Sequence record: MT446387.1
Source: Escherichia phage TH09
Length of the DNA: 64,000 bases
Reading direction: 5' to 3' (one strand)
The notes below the pieces were generated by a model that was given only the letters and a program-made list of their open reading frames with translations, was not told the origin of the DNA and ran no database searches. Shown here one piece after another: positions 1,527 through 31,722 of this stretch; position 1 is the first letter of the stretch; each line of letters begins with the position of its first letter. Made by a program: the position numbers and the translations under genes.

Positions 1527-2990
1527 TTATGCTGGTGATAAAAAGGTAGAAAGTAATACCCATTCGCCGTCTTTACGAACGTAAGCTTGACCATCTTTTG
1601 GAGCTTCAGGAATATAACCTGCTTCTTGTAGAGCTTGAACATCGCCTTGCAGAGAAGATATACTACCTTTGGCTGTATTCACTTCTTGTGTAACTGATGC
1701 AATGTTGGTTTCGTTAGCTTTTATTGAATTGGTTAATCCACGTTCTTCGACAGTTGAACCGTTTGGATTAGTTCCATTTACTAAAGTATTTAATGCTACA
1801 ACTTGCCCTTTAATTCCTGTGCTGTTATTACCAATCTCTACTTGTAGGTTTTGAACATCGTTGTTCAAGCTTGAAACAGAAGTTTCAATTGTAGAAACTC
1901 GGTTTAAAAGAGACCCAGGAGGAGAAGGTTGTCCACCGCTAGAATCAGTTCCAACAATTTGGTTTAACCACGAAACATTCGCTCTTAAACCAGATGAAGT
2001 GTTTTCACCGACGATTCCATTTAAAGATTCGATTGAAGTTGTATTATCTTTGATTTGGCCTTTAATACTCGAAGGAATATCATCTGAACCAATAGAAGTT
2101 TCAATAACGGTTAAACGCTGTTTAATACCTCCACTTTGATTTAGCTCTAAATTAATAGATGCAATACTATCAGTGTTTGTATTAACACTCGTAATAATCG
2201 AATTATTTCCTGGATATCCTATTGAGGTCTTAATAGCACTAATGTCAGACTCAACTGTTGTCTGTTTAGTGTCAATTTCATTTAAGCGGCTGTAAACGTT
2301 TTGTGAAAATGACGGTGGTTTAGGTCCAAGCTCTTCACGGAGATTACCAACTTCAATAGTTAAAGAACCTACATCAGATTCAATAAATTTTGTTTCTAAT
2401 TCGCTTAAACGTATTCCCTGTGAAGTGATGACATCAGTATTATTAATAATGCGATGCTTCATTCCTGTGCTAGGATTTCCTACAACAGGAAGACCATTAA
2501 TATCTTGGCCTGTGTATTGTCCAAGTTCACGCTTTATCCACAGTAAATCATTTCTGATCGTTCTGTATACAGAGTTGGCCTCGGAGTTAAATGGACCAAT
2601 ATCAGCAAGAATGCTGTCAACCGTACTATTAGTCCCATTTAATATTTCTGTATGTTCACTGGTTAGCGTTTTAAGGTCAGAAATATCCTTTTTATTGATA
2701 CTTATTTGGGCCAAAGCTTCAATATCACCAGATACATCTAAGATGCCCTGAATTGTTTTAATATCACTATTTGCGGTTTCTAAAGATGTTTTAAGTATTC
2801 CGATGTTTTTATCAAGAACTTCAACATTTCTTAGTACAGAAACTGTAGGTCTATTCATTGAGCCTTCACTTCCATATTGTGTGTCAGCTCCTAATATTTC
2901 TTCGCCGTTTTTAATCCAGGAAATGCGGCTCTGGCCCTCTGCAGGAGGGCCGTCAACGAATGGTAAGTCATTCAGTACAATATCTGTCAT
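1527..2990 (-). CDS. wac: fibritin (whisker antigen control protein)
   Basis: 487-aa ORF, Ser/Thr/Asn-rich heptad coiled coil ending in foldon [27 protein letters not shown]; T4 fibritin is 487 aa. Confidence 0.95.
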
Positions 2991-4570
2991 TCTTTTACCT
3001 TAATTATGTAGTTTAAAGAAATGTTCCATGGACGTGTTTCATTTCCAATTAATTCAGGACGATTTAGTGTATATTTGGAATTTCGTTGTGATGCTGGGTC
3101 AATTTCATATCCGTCATTGGTGAAATATGAACGGTTATCCCAGTCAAGTCCTTTACGTGTACCAACAAAATTTGATCTACGGGTATTACCGAATGCTCCA
3201 GAATCATCATGCTCACCGAATCCGCCAGCGTGTTTATGATAAGACATCTGCTGTTTTTGCACTTCGCCAACATATCCACCAGTACAACCTACACCTAATC
3301 TAGGCTTACCAAATTGGTCATTACCATTAACATTTGGATTTGTTAAGTGAGAGCCACGACCAGAGCCACGAACAAAAAGACCACGCATATCAGGTAATCC
3401 AGGATTTGATGAGCTTCCGCCGTATCTTGTTCCAATTCTAGAAGCATATAATGGACAATCTGATGCTGAAACAGTTCCGCCATGACAGAAGCGCCAAGCA
3501 TCACTAGGAAGGCTATCAGCCGCCCACATCATAATAGCTCCGACAGGAATAGTTCTATCTATTTCATTCTGCGTTACAACACGCTTACCCTGAATATAAC
3601 CACCGGTCATGTTAACTGTTCCGGTAATATTTGCTCCGCCTGAAGCTATTGTGAGCGTATTATTAATGCGAAGTGTTCCATTAATCGTTTGACCACCTCT
3701 TTGATGGATAACGTCAGCATTCCAAGCTAGTGCTGATGAAGCATCACCTCCACTCTGTGAGCCGGCGGTTGTAGTTAATTTAACTACGCCTCTCATTGAC
3801 GTTGTAGAACCACGACCATTAAGAGTTGCGCCAGTAACCGCAACAGAAGCATTATTCGAGTTAACTTCTGATTGTGTTCCTAATTTAATTACGCCTTTAT
3901 ATTCTTCAGTAGCAGTAGAATTCATTAGCGTATAAGGAGAAATTGCATAGCCTTCTCTTAAGGTTCCTTGACGAACTTGAGCTACTGTCGCTAATTGAAC
4001 AACACCTTGGTCCGATTCGGTAGCTGTGGTTTCAGAAGGAGCGATTTGCGCAATTAGTTTAATAGCTAACTGCTGCGTTTTTAACGGAGTCATCGCAGTA
4101 GTATCATCTGCGCCAGCTAATGCTTGCGGTAGAGATGAAATTTTAATAACTCCATTTGATGATTCAGTTGAAACTCGTGTTTCAAATGCATTATTAAGGG
4201 CAACAGTAAATTTAGCAGGAGTTATAGAAGATTCATTATTAACTCCAGCAATCGCTTCATCATCTGTTGAATATCTTGTTAATCCGTAAACAGTTTCAGT
4301 TGCGTTTGGATAAGATAATCTTGTTGCCAACGTTGCGGGTGTAACTGCTTTGGTATTATCAGTTCCGTCGATAACTTCCTGTTCAGTGGCAAGAAATAAA
4401 ATTCCTTTTGTTGTTGATGATGCATCAGGAACTCCATTTACACCAGCAGGAGAAATGGCTGCTATAGCAGCCTGAACATCAGTAATCTCTGCCGGAAAAT
4501 TTGTACCAGTTGGATCAAATTTTACATAGCGAGATTCATTAGAAACGTGTTGATATGTATTATTACTCAT
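2987..4570 (-). CDS. 12: short tail fiber protein gp12
   Basis: 527-aa ORF, same length as T4 gp12; ATGA overlap with wac; position between 11 and wac. Confidence 0.92.
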
Positions 4571-20664: not shown

Positions 20665-20922
20665 ATGAAAACTTTCAAAGAGTTTGCTACAAAAACTACT
20701 ATCACCGAATCTTCCCACGGTATGGAAGTAAAGCTTGGAATGGCTTTAGCTGAAGCTGAGCGTCTTTTCTCTCGTATTAAAGAACTTGCTGCTGCAGTCG
20801 ATCCTTCATCTTTTAAAGGAGACCAAACTAAAGTTAAAGCGCTTTTAGCATTATGCTCAGATGCAGGAGAAATTGCTAAAAATGGTTCTAAGATGAAGAA
20901 ACGATTAGAAGATTTAAAATAA
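20665..20922 (+). CDS. small internal-protein-like protein with capsid targeting sequence
   Basis: 85 aa; N-terminus MKTFKEFATKTTITE|S resembles the T4 IP capsid targeting sequence with an (L/I)xE prohead-protease site; at the ipI position after 57B. Confidence 0.65.
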   Translation: MKTFKEFATKTTITESSHGMEVKLGMALAEAERLFSRIKELAAAVDPSSFKGDQTKVKALLALCSDAGEIAKNGSKMKKRLEDLK

Positions 20923-20998: not shown

Positions 20999-21232
20999 AT
21001 GAAAACTTTCAAAGAGTTTATCGCTGAATCTTCTGATGTAAAAGTTGAGTTTATTTACACCGGCAAGAAAGATAAAATGGGTGAAATGCCTCATGGAGTT
21101 CTTCGTGATGCATTAGATAATTTCGGTCAACTCGCCGCAGAAGATTACGGTGATAAAATTGTTGTTACTGGTCCTGCTGCAGTTATTGAAAAATGGGCAG
21201 CAGAAAATAAATCAATTTTTCGTAAAAAATAA
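20999..21232 (+). CDS. small internal-protein-like protein with capsid targeting sequence
   Basis: ATG at 20999 gives 77 aa starting MKTFKEFIAE|SSDVK (track starts upstream at 20933). Confidence 0.6.
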   Translation: MKTFKEFIAESSDVKVEFIYTGKKDKMGEMPHGVLRDALDNFGQLAAEDYGDKIVVTGPAAVIEKWAAENKSIFRKK

Positions 21233-22753: not shown

Positions 22754-22826
22754 TGGGAATTAGCCAAGTTGGTAAGGCACTGGATTTTGATTCCAGGATG
22801 CAAAGGTTCGAGTCCTTTATTCCCAG
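22754..22826 (+). tRNA. tRNA-Gln (anticodon UUG), no encoded CCA
   Basis: Manual fold: acceptor tgggaat/attccca, anticodon arm ctgga-ttTTGat-tccag, T-loop ggttcgagtcc. Confidence 0.8.
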
Positions 22827-22827
22827 C

Positions 22828-22914
22828 GCGAGAATGGTCAAATTGGTAAAGGCACAGCACTTAAAATGCTGCGGAATGATTTCCTTGTGGGTTCGAGTCC
22901 CACTTCTCGCACCA
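22828..22914 (+). tRNA. tRNA-Leu (anticodon UAA), long variable arm, CCA encoded
   Basis: Acceptor gcgagaa/ttctcgc, anticodon arm cagca-ctTAAaa-tgctg, T-loop ggttcgagtcc, 3' ACCA. Confidence 0.8.
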
Positions 22915-22919
22915 AATTT

Positions 22920-22993
<74 letters not shown>

Positions 22994-23003
22994 ATTTAAT
23001 TTA

Positions 23004-23077
23004 CTCCGTGTAGCTCAGTTTGGTAGAGCGCCTGATTTGGGATCAGGAGGTCCAAGGTTCAAATCCTTGTATGGAGA
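23004..23077 (+). tRNA. tRNA-Pro (anticodon UGG), no encoded CCA
   Basis: Acceptor ctccgtg/tatggag, anticodon arm cctga-ttTGGga-tcagg; 2 nt before tRNA-Ser (dimeric-precursor arrangement known in T4). Confidence 0.78.
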
Positions 23078-23079
23078 CT

Positions 23080-23169
23080 GGAGGCGTGGCAGAGTGGTTT
23101 AATGCACCGGTCTTGAAAACCGGCAGTCGCTCCGGCGACTCATAGGTTCAAATCCTATCGCCTCCGCCA
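23080..23169 (+). tRNA. tRNA-Ser (anticodon UGA), long variable arm, CCA encoded
   Basis: Acceptor ggaggcg/cgcctcc, anticodon arm ccggt-ctTGAaa-accgg, T-loop ggttcaaatcc. Confidence 0.8.
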
Positions 23170-23174
23170 GTTTT

Positions 23175-23250
23175 GCTGATTTAGCTCAGTAGGTAGAGCA
23201 ACTCACTTGTAATGAGAAGGTCGGCGGTTCGATTCCGTCAATCAGCACCA
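23175..23250 (+). tRNA. tRNA-Thr (anticodon UGU), CCA encoded
   Basis: Acceptor gctgatt/aatcagc, anticodon loop ctTGTaa, T-loop ggttcgattcc. Confidence 0.78.
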
Positions 23251-23251
23251 A

Positions 23252-23326
23252 GGCCCTGTAGCTGGAAGGTTCAAGCAAGCGACTCATAATCGCCAGATGG
23301 TGGTTCAATTCCACCCAGGGCCACCA
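23252..23326 (+). tRNA. tRNA with anticodon CAU (Ile2/Met-type; T4 tRNA-Ile position)
   Basis: Acceptor ggccctg/cagggcc, anticodon loop ctCATaa, T-loop ggttcaattcc, 3' ACCA. Confidence 0.75.
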
Positions 23327-23339
23327 AATTAAGAATTAA

Positions 23340-23426
23340 GGGGAGTTATCCCGTAGAGGTAGCGGTGTGGACTGTAAATCCATTGTCATTGCGACTCGGG
23401 TGGTTCGACTCCATCACTCCCCACCA
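23340..23426 (+). tRNA. tRNA-Tyr-like (anticodon GUA), long variable arm
   Basis: Acceptor ggggagt/actcccc, anticodon arm gtgga-ctGTAaa-tccat, 15-nt variable arm, T-arm ggtgg-ttcgact-ccatc, 3' ACCA; not in the canonical 8-tRNA T4 set (memory). Confidence 0.65.
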
Positions 23427-23430
23427 ATTT

Positions 23431-23505
23431 GGATGTGTAGCTCAATGGCAGAGCGATCGCCTGTTAAGCGATTGGTTATAGGTTCGAATCCTATCACGTC
23501 CGCCA
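23431..23505 (+). tRNA. tRNA-Asn-like (anticodon GUU)
   Basis: Acceptor ggatgtg/cacgtcc (one G-U), anticodon arm atcgc-ctGTTaa-gcgat, T-loop ggttcgaatcc, 3' GCCA. Confidence 0.65.
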
Positions 23506-23509
23506 AATA

Positions 23510-23585
23510 CGAGGCATAGCTCAGAAGGAAGAGCAAGGACCTTCTAAGTCCTGGGTCGTAGGTTCGATCCCTACTGCCTCGACCA
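23510..23585 (+). tRNA. tRNA-Arg (anticodon UCU)
   Basis: Acceptor cgaggca/tgcctcg, anticodon arm aggac-ctTCTaa-gtcct, T-loop ggttcgatccc, 3' ACCA. Confidence 0.78.
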
Positions 23586-23930: not shown

Positions 23931-23938
23931 TATAAATA
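23931..23938 (+). promoter_or_regulatory. late promoter TATAAATA
   Basis: TATAAATA immediately after the terminator, 40 nt upstream of the capsid-targeted ORF at 23979. Confidence 0.65.
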
Positions 23939-23978: not shown

Positions 23979-24452
23979 ATGAAATCATATGCTCAATTTT
24001 TAAATGAAGCGGTGTTAAATGAAGCATCTAGCACCGAAATTCAAGCTGTCGCAAAAGCTGCCATTGCCGCGGGTAAATATTCCTATAAAGATGCTTCCGA
24101 TGAATCACGATTCCAATTTGCTCGTGATATGAAAGCCGAAGGATTTACAGGGAATGCAGTTAGTATGGCTTGGAAAAGTTTAGTTGCTACTGGAGCTGCT
24201 TTTGCAAAGGCTTCAGGTAAACCTGCTCCTAAAGCAGATCCTAAAGTCGCACAAGAGAAAAATATTGTTAAAGGAATTATCTCCAAATATGAAGCTATCC
24301 TTAAAGAGCTTTTAGTAATTAAAACTGAAGGCCAAAAGCTAGCTCGTGCTTATAGTTTCAAAGATAACCCACATGTTCACTCTCTTGAATATGTTGAAGA
24401 CATCCAAAAAATTATTAAAGACCGCATTTGGTCTGCTAAACAAATCAAATAA
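23979..24452 (+). CDS. internal-protein-like capsid-targeted protein
   Basis: 157 aa; N-terminus MKSYAQFLNE|A matches the CTS pattern MKTYxEFxxE|A; Ala/Lys-rich; AGGAAA SD; late promoter upstream. Confidence 0.7.
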   Translation: MKSYAQFLNEAVLNEASSTEIQAVAKAAIAAGKYSYKDASDESRFQFARDMKAEGFTGNAVSMAWKSLVATGAAFAKASGKPAPKADPKVAQEKNIVKGIISKYEAILKELLVIKTEGQKLARAYSFKDNPHVHSLEYVEDIQKIIKDRIWSAKQIK

Positions 24453-24570: not shown

Positions 24571-25134
24571 ATGAAAACCTACGCCGAATTTTTAACCGAA
24601 GCAGCAAAATTACCATCTGAAGCAGATCTTACTAAAGTATTCTTCCACTTGGACCCAAAAGACCGTGGCGATTTTCTTAAGTGGAAAGCTAAAGCTATTG
24701 AAATGTACAACATCGATAATAGTTCTTTTACAATGAGTCAAGAAAATAAATTCAATAAAGCATTTTTCAAAATTTCTAAGAAATTGGCATCTGGCGCTCA
24801 GGTTCCTAAATCTGCATTAGCTACTCCTGAACGCGCACCTGTTAAAATTTCTAAGAATATGTTCGACACTAAAAAATACGTTAATGCTTTGAATAAAGCT
24901 CTTGATGCATTGGATGATGCAAAGAAGGCAGCCCGTGATCTTCAAGACGTGTACACCGATTTTGATCGTAAAACTAAAGGTTCTATTTCAAATAGCGAAC
25001 GCAATAGTGTAAGTGTTTATTCTGATAGCCTTGACGTTCTTGGCGATGCGTATACTGAAATTAAAAATCGTATTAACACTGCATCTAAGCTAAAAGCTGC
25101 CGCAGAAGCTATAATAACTAAACTAGATAAATAA
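24571..25134 (+). CDS. internal-protein-like capsid-targeted protein
   Basis: 187 aa; N-terminus MKTYAEFLTE|AAK; basic Lys/Ala-rich; size close to T4 IPIII (about 194 aa, memory). Confidence 0.7.
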   Translation: MKTYAEFLTEAAKLPSEADLTKVFFHLDPKDRGDFLKWKAKAIEMYNIDNSSFTMSQENKFNKAFFKISKKLASGAQVPKSALATPERAPVKISKNMFDTKKYVNALNKALDALDDAKKAARDLQDVYTDFDRKTKGSISNSERNSVSVYSDSLDVLGDAYTEIKNRINTASKLKAAAEAIITKLDK

Positions 25135-29110: not shown

Positions 29111-30079
<969 letters not shown>

Positions 30080-30083
30080 AGTT

Positions 30084-30113
30084 GTTTACTTTCTCCTAGA
30101 ATTGTGATAGTAT
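30084..30113 (+). promoter_or_regulatory. T4-type early promoter upstream of denV
   Basis: GTTTAC (30084-30089), 18-nt spacer, TGA-TAGTAT (30108-30113). Confidence 0.5.
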
Positions 30114-30138
30114 ATTCACAGTTAATTGGAGGGATAAA

Positions 30139-30555
30139 ATGACTCGTATTAATTTGACTTTAGTATCTGAACTTGCTGATCAACATTTAATCGCAGAATA
30201 CCGTGAATTGCCGCGTGTTTTTGGTATAGTTCGTAAGCATGTGGCAAACGGTAAGCGCGTTAAAGATTTTAAAATATCTTCCGAGTTTATTTTAGGTTCT
30301 GGTCATGTTACGTTCTTTTACGATAAGTTAGAATTTTTGCGAAAGCGTCAATTAGACATTATAACGGAATGCTTAAAACGCGGGTTCAGTATAAAAGATA
30401 CTGAAGTTCCTGACATCAGCGATATTCCAGTAGAATGGAAAAATGATTATAATCCATGCAAATCAGCTATTAAATTGAGTCAACAACGACTTGATGAAAA
30501 AATTTTAATGAAACCACATTGGTATAAGTATTACGGTAAAAATATTTACATTTAA
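30139..30555 (+). CDS. denV: endonuclease V (pyrimidine dimer DNA glycosylase)
   Basis: 138 aa, [17 protein letters not shown]...WYKYYGK; size and sequence consistent with T4 endoV. Confidence 0.93.
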
Positions 30556-30564
30556 AGGAAACAT

Positions 30565-31038
30565 ATGAAAACATATCAAGAATTTATCACTGAAGCAGCT
30601 ATTAATTCTCAAATTATTGCTGAATCTTTTACTGATCTTTTGAAATTTAAAAAAGGTCAAAAAATCACTGCTGTATTGGATGATGGTACAGAAGTTGAGA
30701 TGGATGTACAGGGATATAATTATGCAGTAGATGGAAAATTGTATAATAAATCTCATGCTAAATTTGATTCATTTGACGACTTTGTTAATACAGTTGAAGA
30801 TGAAAAAACTCGTCGATCCATTGCAACTGGTGATGCTAAGGTTCTTATGGCACATGGTCATGAACGCATTCGCGCTAAACAGAATAAAATGGGCGAAGAT
30901 AATTTCGCATTAGTTGGTTATCAATCTGGTAAACAAACTTATGGTTATCAACGTACTGCTACCATGTATAATAAAAATGGTAAAATTGCCTTTGTGAATA
31001 GTAAAGGTTCTATTCAGTACGTTAAATCGTTCAAATAA
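30565..31038 (+). CDS. internal-protein-like capsid-targeted protein
   Basis: 157 aa; N-terminus MKTYQEFITE|AA is the canonical CTS decapeptide with LxE|A site; remainder unlike T4 IPII/IPIII as far as I can recall. Confidence 0.7.
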   Translation: MKTYQEFITEAAINSQIIAESFTDLLKFKKGQKITAVLDDGTEVEMDVQGYNYAVDGKLYNKSHAKFDSFDDFVNTVEDEKTRRSIATGDAKVLMAHGHERIRAKQNKMGEDNFALVGYQSGKQTYGYQRTATMYNKNGKIAFVNSKGSIQYVKSFK

Positions 31039-31179
31039 TATGGGAACAAGCTGGACCTCATGATTCTGTGAGGGATTCCCGCCAACCTGTGATAAGGTCG
31101 AGCCTGAGTGCGGTAATGGGTAAATACAGAAATGGACAATTCATGCGCCACGGAATGGCCCAAATTTAGAGAGAATAAA

Positions 31180-31722
31180 ATGAGAACATTTTTAACTGGT
31201 CCTTATCTATCCCTGATGAATGCTTTTATACACCATTCTGATGCTAGAGTAGAAGAAATTTGTAATAGTGGATTTTATGTACCTGATTCGTCGCATTTAT
31301 TTAAAGAATATTGTACACTTCGACTAGATGGTGGACGTCAATCCGGTAAATCAATTGCTGTGACTAACTTTGCTGCTAATTGGCTGTATGATGGCGGAAC
31401 AGTTATTGTTCTTTCTAATACTTCAGCTTACGCTAAAATTTCTGCAAATAACATTAAAAAGGAATTTTCGCGTTATTCTAATGATGATATACGTTTTCGT
31501 TTATTTACTGATTCTGTGCGCAGTTTTATTGGTAATAAAGGAAGTAAGTTCAGAGGTTTATCGCTTTCGCGAATTTTGTATATAATTGATGAGCCTGTCA
31601 AATCTCCTGATATGGATAAGATTTATAGCGTCCATATTGACACTGTACACTACTGCTGTAATAGTAAATGTTGCATTGGTGGTATTACTCGTCCACAGTT
31701 TTTCGTAATCGGAATGCAATGA
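31180..31722 (+). CDS. small P-loop NTPase
   Basis: ATG at 31180 with GAGAGA SD (track starts at 31132); Walker A DGGRQSGKS and Walker B-like ILYIIDEP; Cys-rich C-terminus. Confidence 0.55.
   Translation: MRTFLTGPYLSLMNAFIHHSDARVEEICNSGFYVPDSSHLFKEYCTLRLDGGRQSGKSIAVTNFAANWLYDGGTVIVLSNTSAYAKISANNIKKEFSRYSNDDIRFRLFTDSVRSFIGNKGSKFRGLSLSRILYIIDEPVKSPDMDKIYSVHIDTVHYCCNSKCCIGGITRPQFFVIGMQ

Follow-up and report, generated by a model that had tools for sequence, protein, structure and literature searches.

We find that the open reading frame at 30565-31038 in a 64,000-nucleotide stretch of the Escherichia phage TH09 genome (MT446387.1; this whole stretch is termed the window) encodes what is, by sequence, Ip4, a named member of the polymorphic 'internal proteins' of the T-even phages that is already catalogued and not new. 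Its product begins with a canonical capsid targeting sequence (CTS), and we hold with high confidence that Ip4 is packaged and processed; that it also has an anti-defence role is, by analogy with other CTS proteins, somewhat favoured. At the level of databases the novelty is nil, ip4 having been named, annotated and screened once before. What the present analysis adds is a conserved second protease site, the boundaries of the cassette, a leader common to T4 ipII, synteny over three genera, an argument against catalysis and a constraint drawn from the GmrSD systems.

Table 1. Features of the ip4 region, in window coordinates
Feature	Position	Strand	Remarks
Two exact T4 late-promoter boxes, TATAAATA	29551..29571	+	At 29551 and 29564, upstream of gene e
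Early-promoter-like element with inverted repeat (GTTGTTTAC ... TAGTATATT)	30081..30125	+	Upstream of denV; read from sequence
denV (endonuclease V), upstream neighbour	30139..30555	+	78% identity to T4 DenV over 137 aa; denV in GiZh
ip-gene leader	30538..30564	+	Shine-Dalgarno AAAGGAA at 30554-30560
ip4 (ipIV) coding sequence	30565..31038	+	ATG start, 157 aa, stop included
CTS, MKTYQEFITE	30565..30594	+	Predicted gp21 cleavage after Glu10 (codon 30592-30594)
Linker, AAINSQIIAE	30595..30624	+	Second predicted gp21 site, I-A-E/S, after Glu20 (codon 30622-30624)
Mature Ip4 domain, residues 21-157	30625..31035	+	Predicted beta-hairpin, three helices and four C-terminal strands, the strands as a small barrel
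vs.8 homologue, right flank	31042..31722	+	N-terminal part (~31068-31172) out of frame with main ORF 31132-31722

Identity, distribution and constraint of Ip4

The reading frame is present as the first-pass annotation had described it, with a start of MKTYQEFITE/AA (product beginning MKTYQEFITEAA in both the ORF list and the sequence) and a position directly downstream of denV, 9 nt past the stop of the denV homologue. It is 100% identical in nucleotides to ipIV of phage GiZh, whose record is annotated 'similar to T2 RB70 Ip4', and 319 phage records match it with at least 90% nucleotide identity. The homology and structure searches that the same annotation had recommended place the product in a named family, Ip4/IpIV, without an enzyme fold: its match to PHROG 3155 (internal virion protein) spans positions 1-157 of 157 at E=6e-102, and that to Pfam DUF7412 (PF24183) spans 1-157 of 158 at E=6e-96, with 319 bits against a cutoff of 27. 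We stress that 'internal virion protein' and similar database names are annotations by similarity. The exact Ip4 sequence is carried by 459 public contigs, its UniRef name is 'IpIV internal head protein' of T2, and a local tblastn search of T2 (AP018813) located the identical protein (100% aa) directly after gene e. The closest structural match in BFVD, UniProt Q38388, is 'Ip4 [Enterobacteria phage K3]' at 99% identity, in agreement with the ip-gene catalogue attributed to Repoila et al. 1994 (cited in PMC12373910); the name Ip4 is likewise used in the records of RB14, RB32, AR1 and S16. The window as a whole is a mosaic Tequatrovirus, the best match over 14 kb being 97% identical at 94% coverage.

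Searching with the mature region by tblastn, we recovered 470 phage records, of which approximately 310 are Tequatrovirus records at 95% amino acid identity or more, while the Klebsiella T4-like phages (Jiaodavirus) stand at ~75% and the Salmonella S16-like phages (Gelderlandvirus) at ~73%. Among 5.8 billion proteins the family comprises 14 clusters. An exhaustive HMM search of 1.84 billion representatives gave seven matches at E<0.001, all of them phage Ip4-like proteins or fragments, and no link to any other family. Three of the seven are metagenomic homologues of 34-36% identity with CTS-like starts, two of which begin MNFxxFLNE/S. Using a chimeric ipIII+ip4 query, we observed ip4 only in ~305 records, ipIII only in ~227 and both genes adjacent in 14; in Klebsiella T4-like phages both an Ip4 homologue and ipIII are present. 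Natural absence of ip4 from viable close relatives, namely T4, Bas37 and T6 (corresponding 14-kb region), marks the gene as dispensable on laboratory hosts, in keeping with an accessory role.

Three relatives of aberrant structure were also encountered, one from Klebsiella phage vB_Kpn_AM_K5 (P0014) and two metagenomic (P0018 and P0020). One of the three, of 184 aa, departs from Ip4 after residue ~132, its C-terminal third being unrelated, another has 100 aa in which only the last 35 Ip4 residues are retained, fused to an unrelated N-terminus, and another is a 39-aa truncation whose first 30 residues are identical to those of the window Ip4. These are likely frameshifts or assembly artefacts.

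Pairwise comparison of six Tequatrovirus copies of ip4 revealed 7-29 synonymous against 0-2 non-synonymous differences, i.e. a dN/dS of 0-0.03 at dS of up to 0.39, which marks ip4 as a functional, conserved gene. Constraint is similar in e, denV, vs.6 and vs.7, and at the depth of these six copies ip4 bears no sign of diversifying selection.

Capsid targeting sequence and mature domain

The Ip4 decapeptide is identical in nine of its ten residues to the T4 IPII/IPIII leader MKTYQEFIAE, the sole change being A9T, and leads into an I-T-E/A site at residues 8-11. The claim of a capsid-targeted N-terminus is therefore borne out: a canonical CTS with an I-x-E/A prohead-protease site heads a gene of the e/denV internal-protein locus. 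When the decapeptide was back-translated degenerately, it matched ip4 with 0 mismatches and one other window site with 2 mismatches; since the pattern had no match in 100 shuffles, the match at ip4 is not due to chance. A CTS suffices to load foreign proteins into T4 heads (PMC3012670). In an alignment of 12 family members M1, K2, F7 and E10 are invariant. The same holds in these 12 close members for E20, which is always preceded by I, L or M at -2 and followed by S or A, and E10 and E20 together share the context of a hydrophobic residue (I/L/M) at -2 and a small one (A/S/T) after. These are the only two [LIVM]xE[ASGT] sites in Ip4. Given that both glutamates are conserved in this context, we propose two gp21 cuts and a putative mature N-terminus at Ser21. 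Residues 10-18 have a pLDDT below 50 in the AlphaFold2 model, from which we take this segment to be a disordered linker. A propeptide of 20 residues in two parts, cut twice by gp21 as predicted here, would be a secondary novelty. The searchable literature, in which the name Ip4 is shared with inositol phosphates, yielded neither virion proteomics of Ip4 nor ip4 knockout data.

Removal of 10 or 20 residues would leave a basic protein of 16.5 or 15.5 kDa with a pI of 9.1-9.3, the mature form containing 22 K+R against 17-18 D+E. With distant homologues included in the alignment, AlphaFold2 gave a model with a mean pLDDT of 83.9 and a pTM of 0.78, in which the predicted core consists of the hairpin (33-54), the helices (70-103) and the strands (113-156). 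Several polar residues (H64, H99, E111 and D112, with many K, N and Y) are invariant within the close family and lie in conserved loops. In the distant homologues P0015-P0017, H64, H99, E111 and D112 are all replaced, and the positions that stay invariant out to that distance are only G, K, N, Q, Y, T, A, L and V. As the histidines and the acidic residues are lost in this way, the pattern favours binding over catalysis as the mode of action of Ip4.

The first-pass annotation had also stated that the remainder of the protein is unlike the T4 internal proteins, and this agrees with our searches. In blastp of Ip4 minus its first 10 residues against T4 IPII and IPIII there was nothing meaningful: the best E in this two-sequence database was 0.02, and IPIII gave short chance matches only. 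A 27.5% match between Ip4 and IPII was discarded as CTS-driven. Nor did the mature domain display sequence or fold similarity to Ip1, Ip2 or Ip3, or similarity to the four other CTS-type ORFs of the window. Searches of Pfam, NCBIfam (sub-threshold noise only), PDB sequences and folds returned no enzyme family; with single sequence and profile, the PDB sequence searches gave nothing below E=0.5 except one chance match to a designed repeat protein. The earlier reading, a capsid-targeted cargo that is neither IPII nor IPIII, is thus supported, and packaging and injection are inferred from T4 biology.

The ip locus, cassette boundaries and expression signals

In the window ip4 lies in a variable ip locus between conserved flanking genes, in the order nudE-e-denV-ip4-vs.8-vs.7, as opposed to nudE-e-ipIII-ipII-denV-vs.8 in T4, and the window has no IPII or IPIII homologue. 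The position of denV between e and ip4 is repeated in GiZh, Sf24 and PYps47T. In RB14, T2 and Bas43 the order is e-ip4-vs.8, without denV; in KpV477 and S16 ip4 follows e directly; in G4498 and ECML-134 the order is ipIII-ip4. The arrangement e-(denV)-Ip4-vs.8 is syntenic across Tequatrovirus, Jiaodavirus and Gelderlandvirus, and the ~470 sequenced T4-like phages with Ip4 all have the gene at this locus. None of Ip4, IPII and IPIII is encoded at the corresponding locus of Bas37 or of T6 (14 kb examined). In T6 (AP018814 58000-72000) regB comes directly after gene e, and the entire denV/ip/vs.8-vs.3 block is missing.

T4 ipII has the very same 27-nt leader, AAAAATATTTACATTTAAAGGAAACAT, as ip4, and near-identical strings precede Ip4 in RB14, G4498 and T2 as well as T4 ipIII. 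The first part of the window leader (30538-30555) doubles as the 3' end of denV, whose final six codons and stop read GKNIYI* as compared with GKAIYA* in T4, from which we conclude that the denV C-terminus is a recombination junction with the ip4 cassette. On the other side, the sequence from 3 nt past the ip4 stop is the sequence found after the denV stop in T4. With a leader shared with ipII on the left and T4 post-denV sequence on the right, ip4 and its leader appear, by sequence, to form one cassette of ~505 nt. The leader and CTS-coding stretch that the ip genes share (~55 nt) would, we infer, serve as a handle for the homologous exchange of cargo modules.

In phage vB_EcoM_G4498, where ip4 stands immediately after ipIII, only a 42-codon remnant of the denV 3' end is found upstream (features at 2044-2169 and 2501-3664 of the locus segment). 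The motif GGTAATGGGTAAATA.AGAAA.GGACAATTCATGCG occurs on both sides of this ip4, which suggests repeat-mediated shuffling of ip cassettes.

To the right of ip4, tblastn with T4 Vs.8 matched two pieces in different frames. The out-of-frame start, corresponding to the first 35 codons, is GC-rich (51% GC against 35% for the window); its conservation extends to Klebsiella phage KpV477, and the frame split is common to many Ip4-carrying phages, the Sf24 annotation reading 'lacks the N-terminus'. A structured RNA or terminator at the GC-rich segment 31042-31165 was considered and rejected, given no Rfam match and a folding z-score of +0.43; the segment encodes the N-terminal part of Vs.8, out of frame.

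As regards expression, the early-promoter-like element upstream of denV recurs directly upstream of Ip4 in RB14, T2 and Bas43, which are without denV, and upstream of T4 ipIII. Judged by sequence, early transcription of denV-ip4 from this element is probable. One-mismatch late boxes occur just upstream of ip4 (TATAAGTA at 30523 and TAAAAATA at 30537), and between 29000 and 32200 the + strand has no terminator-like site; late read-through from the boxes upstream of gene e into denV-ip4 is possible. A pattern search of the window found eleven exact late boxes, a number no greater than that expected by chance, and we therefore treat the late boxes as positional evidence only.

The first-pass annotation erred in counting ip4 as the third cargo gene, as the window contains five ORFs with such an N-terminus, starting at 20665, 20999, 23979, 24571 and 30565. 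Two of them occupy the ipI locus, each with an early-promoter-like element upstream: 20665-20922 (+) encodes 85 aa starting MKTFKEFATK (PHROG 3499, 'internal head protein'), and 20999-21232 (+) encodes 77 aa starting MKTFKEFIAE/SS (PHROG 8111), annotated ipVI in GiZh and PST. From its equal length and position, the 77-aa ORF is a probable candidate orthologue of bas37_0260. Ten tRNA genes at 22754-23582 (+), the expected T4 tRNA region, separate this locus from a paralogous pair at 23979-24452 and 24571-25134 (+), which lies between the tRNA cluster and e.8. Its members, of 157 and 187 aa, start MKSYAQFLNE/AV and MKTYAEFLTE/AA; both belong to PHROG 2280 ('unknown function'), and an exact late box at 23931 precedes ORF 23979-24452. 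Absent from GiZh, the pair is found in 164 Tequatrovirus records, where it carries no annotation beyond 'hypothetical protein'. In transposon mapping, bas37_0243 (564 nt), identical in length and position to a PHROG 2280 ORF and on that ground a candidate orthologue, was scored 'Essential' with 1 of 48 TA sites hit; essentiality would be remarkable for a protein of the capsid-cargo type.

Proposed role and comparison with known internal proteins

No phage product meets host immunity earlier than the injected internal proteins do; ~1000 internal protein molecules travel with the T4 DNA (PMC3012670). Each of the T4 proteins Ip1, Ip2 and Ip3 blocks a GmrSD type IV nuclease of its own, without cross-protection (PMC12373910), and a fourth CTS protein, Bas37_0260, inhibits McrBC (HIDEN-SEQ preprint, bioRxiv 10.1101/2025.11.20.689424). 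All four CTS proteins of known function are thus inhibitors of type IV restriction, so that any orphan Ip can serve to uncover a defence as yet undiscovered or uncharacterised. At the e/denV locus no orphan is more widespread than Ip4, which is present in ~470 sequenced phages including the classical T2. Its target, if found, would explain part of the difference in host range between T2-type and T4-type phages, a matter of relevance to the choice of therapeutic phages.

Following T4 biology, the N-terminal decapeptide would dock Ip4 into the scaffolding core of the prohead, and the prohead protease gp21 would remove it after Glu10; a second cut, following the conserved Glu20, is probable. The resulting basic protein (~15.5 kDa, pI ~9.2) would stay among the packaged DNA and be ejected into the cell together with the genome. 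There, by analogy only, it may bind and stoichiometrically inhibit a host defence directed at the incoming modified DNA. The most likely target would be an early-acting system, whether a type IV (modification-dependent) nuclease or some other, and not the tested GmrSD variants. In the published screen, ip4-10 expressed against a panel of GmrSD variants gave no reproducible inhibition (PMC12373910, Supplementary Fig. 9), and T2 is restricted by GmrSD-ECOR17 and GmrSD-ECOR21 and apparently also by GmrSD-CT596 (PMC12373910). Since the published test was negative and T2 is restricted while encoding an identical Ip4, we do not file Ip4 as a GmrSD inhibitor; T2 and the published screens together constrain the target to lie outside the known GmrSD systems. 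We tentatively hypothesize that Ip4, after injection, inhibits a defence outside the GmrSD variants and McrBC so far characterised; a type IV nuclease in particular is a possible target by analogy, on balance an unlikely one. Conservation over three genera of T4-like phages, with Escherichia, Klebsiella and Salmonella as hosts, and near-invariance within Tequatrovirus suggest that the target is conserved and widespread among hosts and not a nuclease peculiar to certain strains. The near-invariance also counts against an inhibitor, being unlike the usual signature of an arms race; e and denV, however, are equally constrained. Also to be set against it is the fact that the only two exact late boxes of the locus are both ~1 kb upstream and the nearest strong signal is an early-type promoter.

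Such an early-type element is equally what one would see if Ip4 were an ordinary early product that stays in the cytoplasm, its CTS-like start being a by-product of recombination at the ip leader, which together with the CTS-coding stretch forms a shared recombination handle. We regard this as extremely unlikely. The four invariant residues of the decapeptide and the I/L-x-E/A/S site are kept across three genera at 61-82% overall identity, and the CTS-like MNFxxFLNE/S start persists in homologues at 34-36%, and this retention indicates that the N-terminus is under selection; moreover, early-type promoters precede the ip genes of T4 too, whose products are packaged all the same. A packaged Ip4 could be enzymatic, degrading some host component or modifying it covalently, in the manner of Alt, the packaged ADP-ribosyltransferase that T4 injects, and the invariant polar residues in conserved loops of the close family would suit a catalytic site. 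We consider this very unlikely, as the four candidate residues are replaced in P0015-P0017, the family and fold searches gave no enzyme, and the 137 residues, modelled as an SH3-like barrel plus helices, would make an unlikely catalytic scaffold.

The main rival to an injected inhibitor is a bulk filler of the head, i.e. a basic, DNA-associated protein that replaces IPII and IPIII in neutralising charge or in DNA ejection without a specific host target. Its basic pI would suit Ip4 to such a role, near-absolute sequence conservation fits a structural constraint, and in T4 heads the phosphates of the DNA are in contact with internal-protein lysines (PMC3012670). Within Tequatrovirus, moreover, Ip4 and ipIII are largely alternative occupants of one region; in Klebsiella T4-like phages, however, the two occur together, and T6 (14-kb locus) and Bas37 are viable without Ip4, IPII or IPIII there. 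In addition, T4 IPII and IPIII, formerly seen as bulk, proved to be specific GmrSD inhibitors (PMC12373910), and Ip4 is predicted to be a folded globular domain with conserved surface loops, not a low-complexity polycation. We therefore judge a bulk role improbable and retain the injected inhibitor as our working hypothesis.

Among known systems, the Ip4 proteins of K3, T2, RB14, RB32, AR1, GiZh and S16 (UniProt Q38388, A0A2Z5WKT6) are the same protein, with the same length, CTS and locus; the window Ip4 is 100% identical in amino acids to that of T2 and to mature RB14 Ip4, and 99% identical to that of K3. The window differs from T2 and RB14, in which ip4 directly follows e, and from G4498 (ipIII-ip4) in having denV between e and ip4. 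T4 IPII and IPIII resemble Ip4 in their N-terminal CTS with a gp21 site, their nudE-e-...-denV-vs.8 neighbourhood and their basic character. Unlike ip4, which lies between denV and vs.8, they are encoded between e and denV, and their mature domains are unrelated to that of Ip4 in sequence; the target of IPII is GmrSD-ECOR21 and that of IPIII is GmrSD-ECOR17, whereas Ip4 inhibited no GmrSD variant tested (PMC12373910). T4 IPI*, which inhibits the GmrS/GmrD of E. coli CT596, is a small CTS-directed, processed and injected protein of mixed alpha/beta structure whose action is through binding (PMC3012670). Its gene is at the ipI locus, adjacent to gene 57B (~20.6-21.2 kb in the window); IPI* has no sequence similarity to Ip4 and is absent among the top structural matches listed for Ip4. 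Bas37_0260, also sequence-unrelated, has 77 aa and is encoded at the ipI locus of a phage without ip4; it is, like Ip4, a CTS protein not found in T4, and its anti-type-IV role shows that the targets of Ip proteins extend beyond GmrSD (10.1101/2025.11.20.689424).
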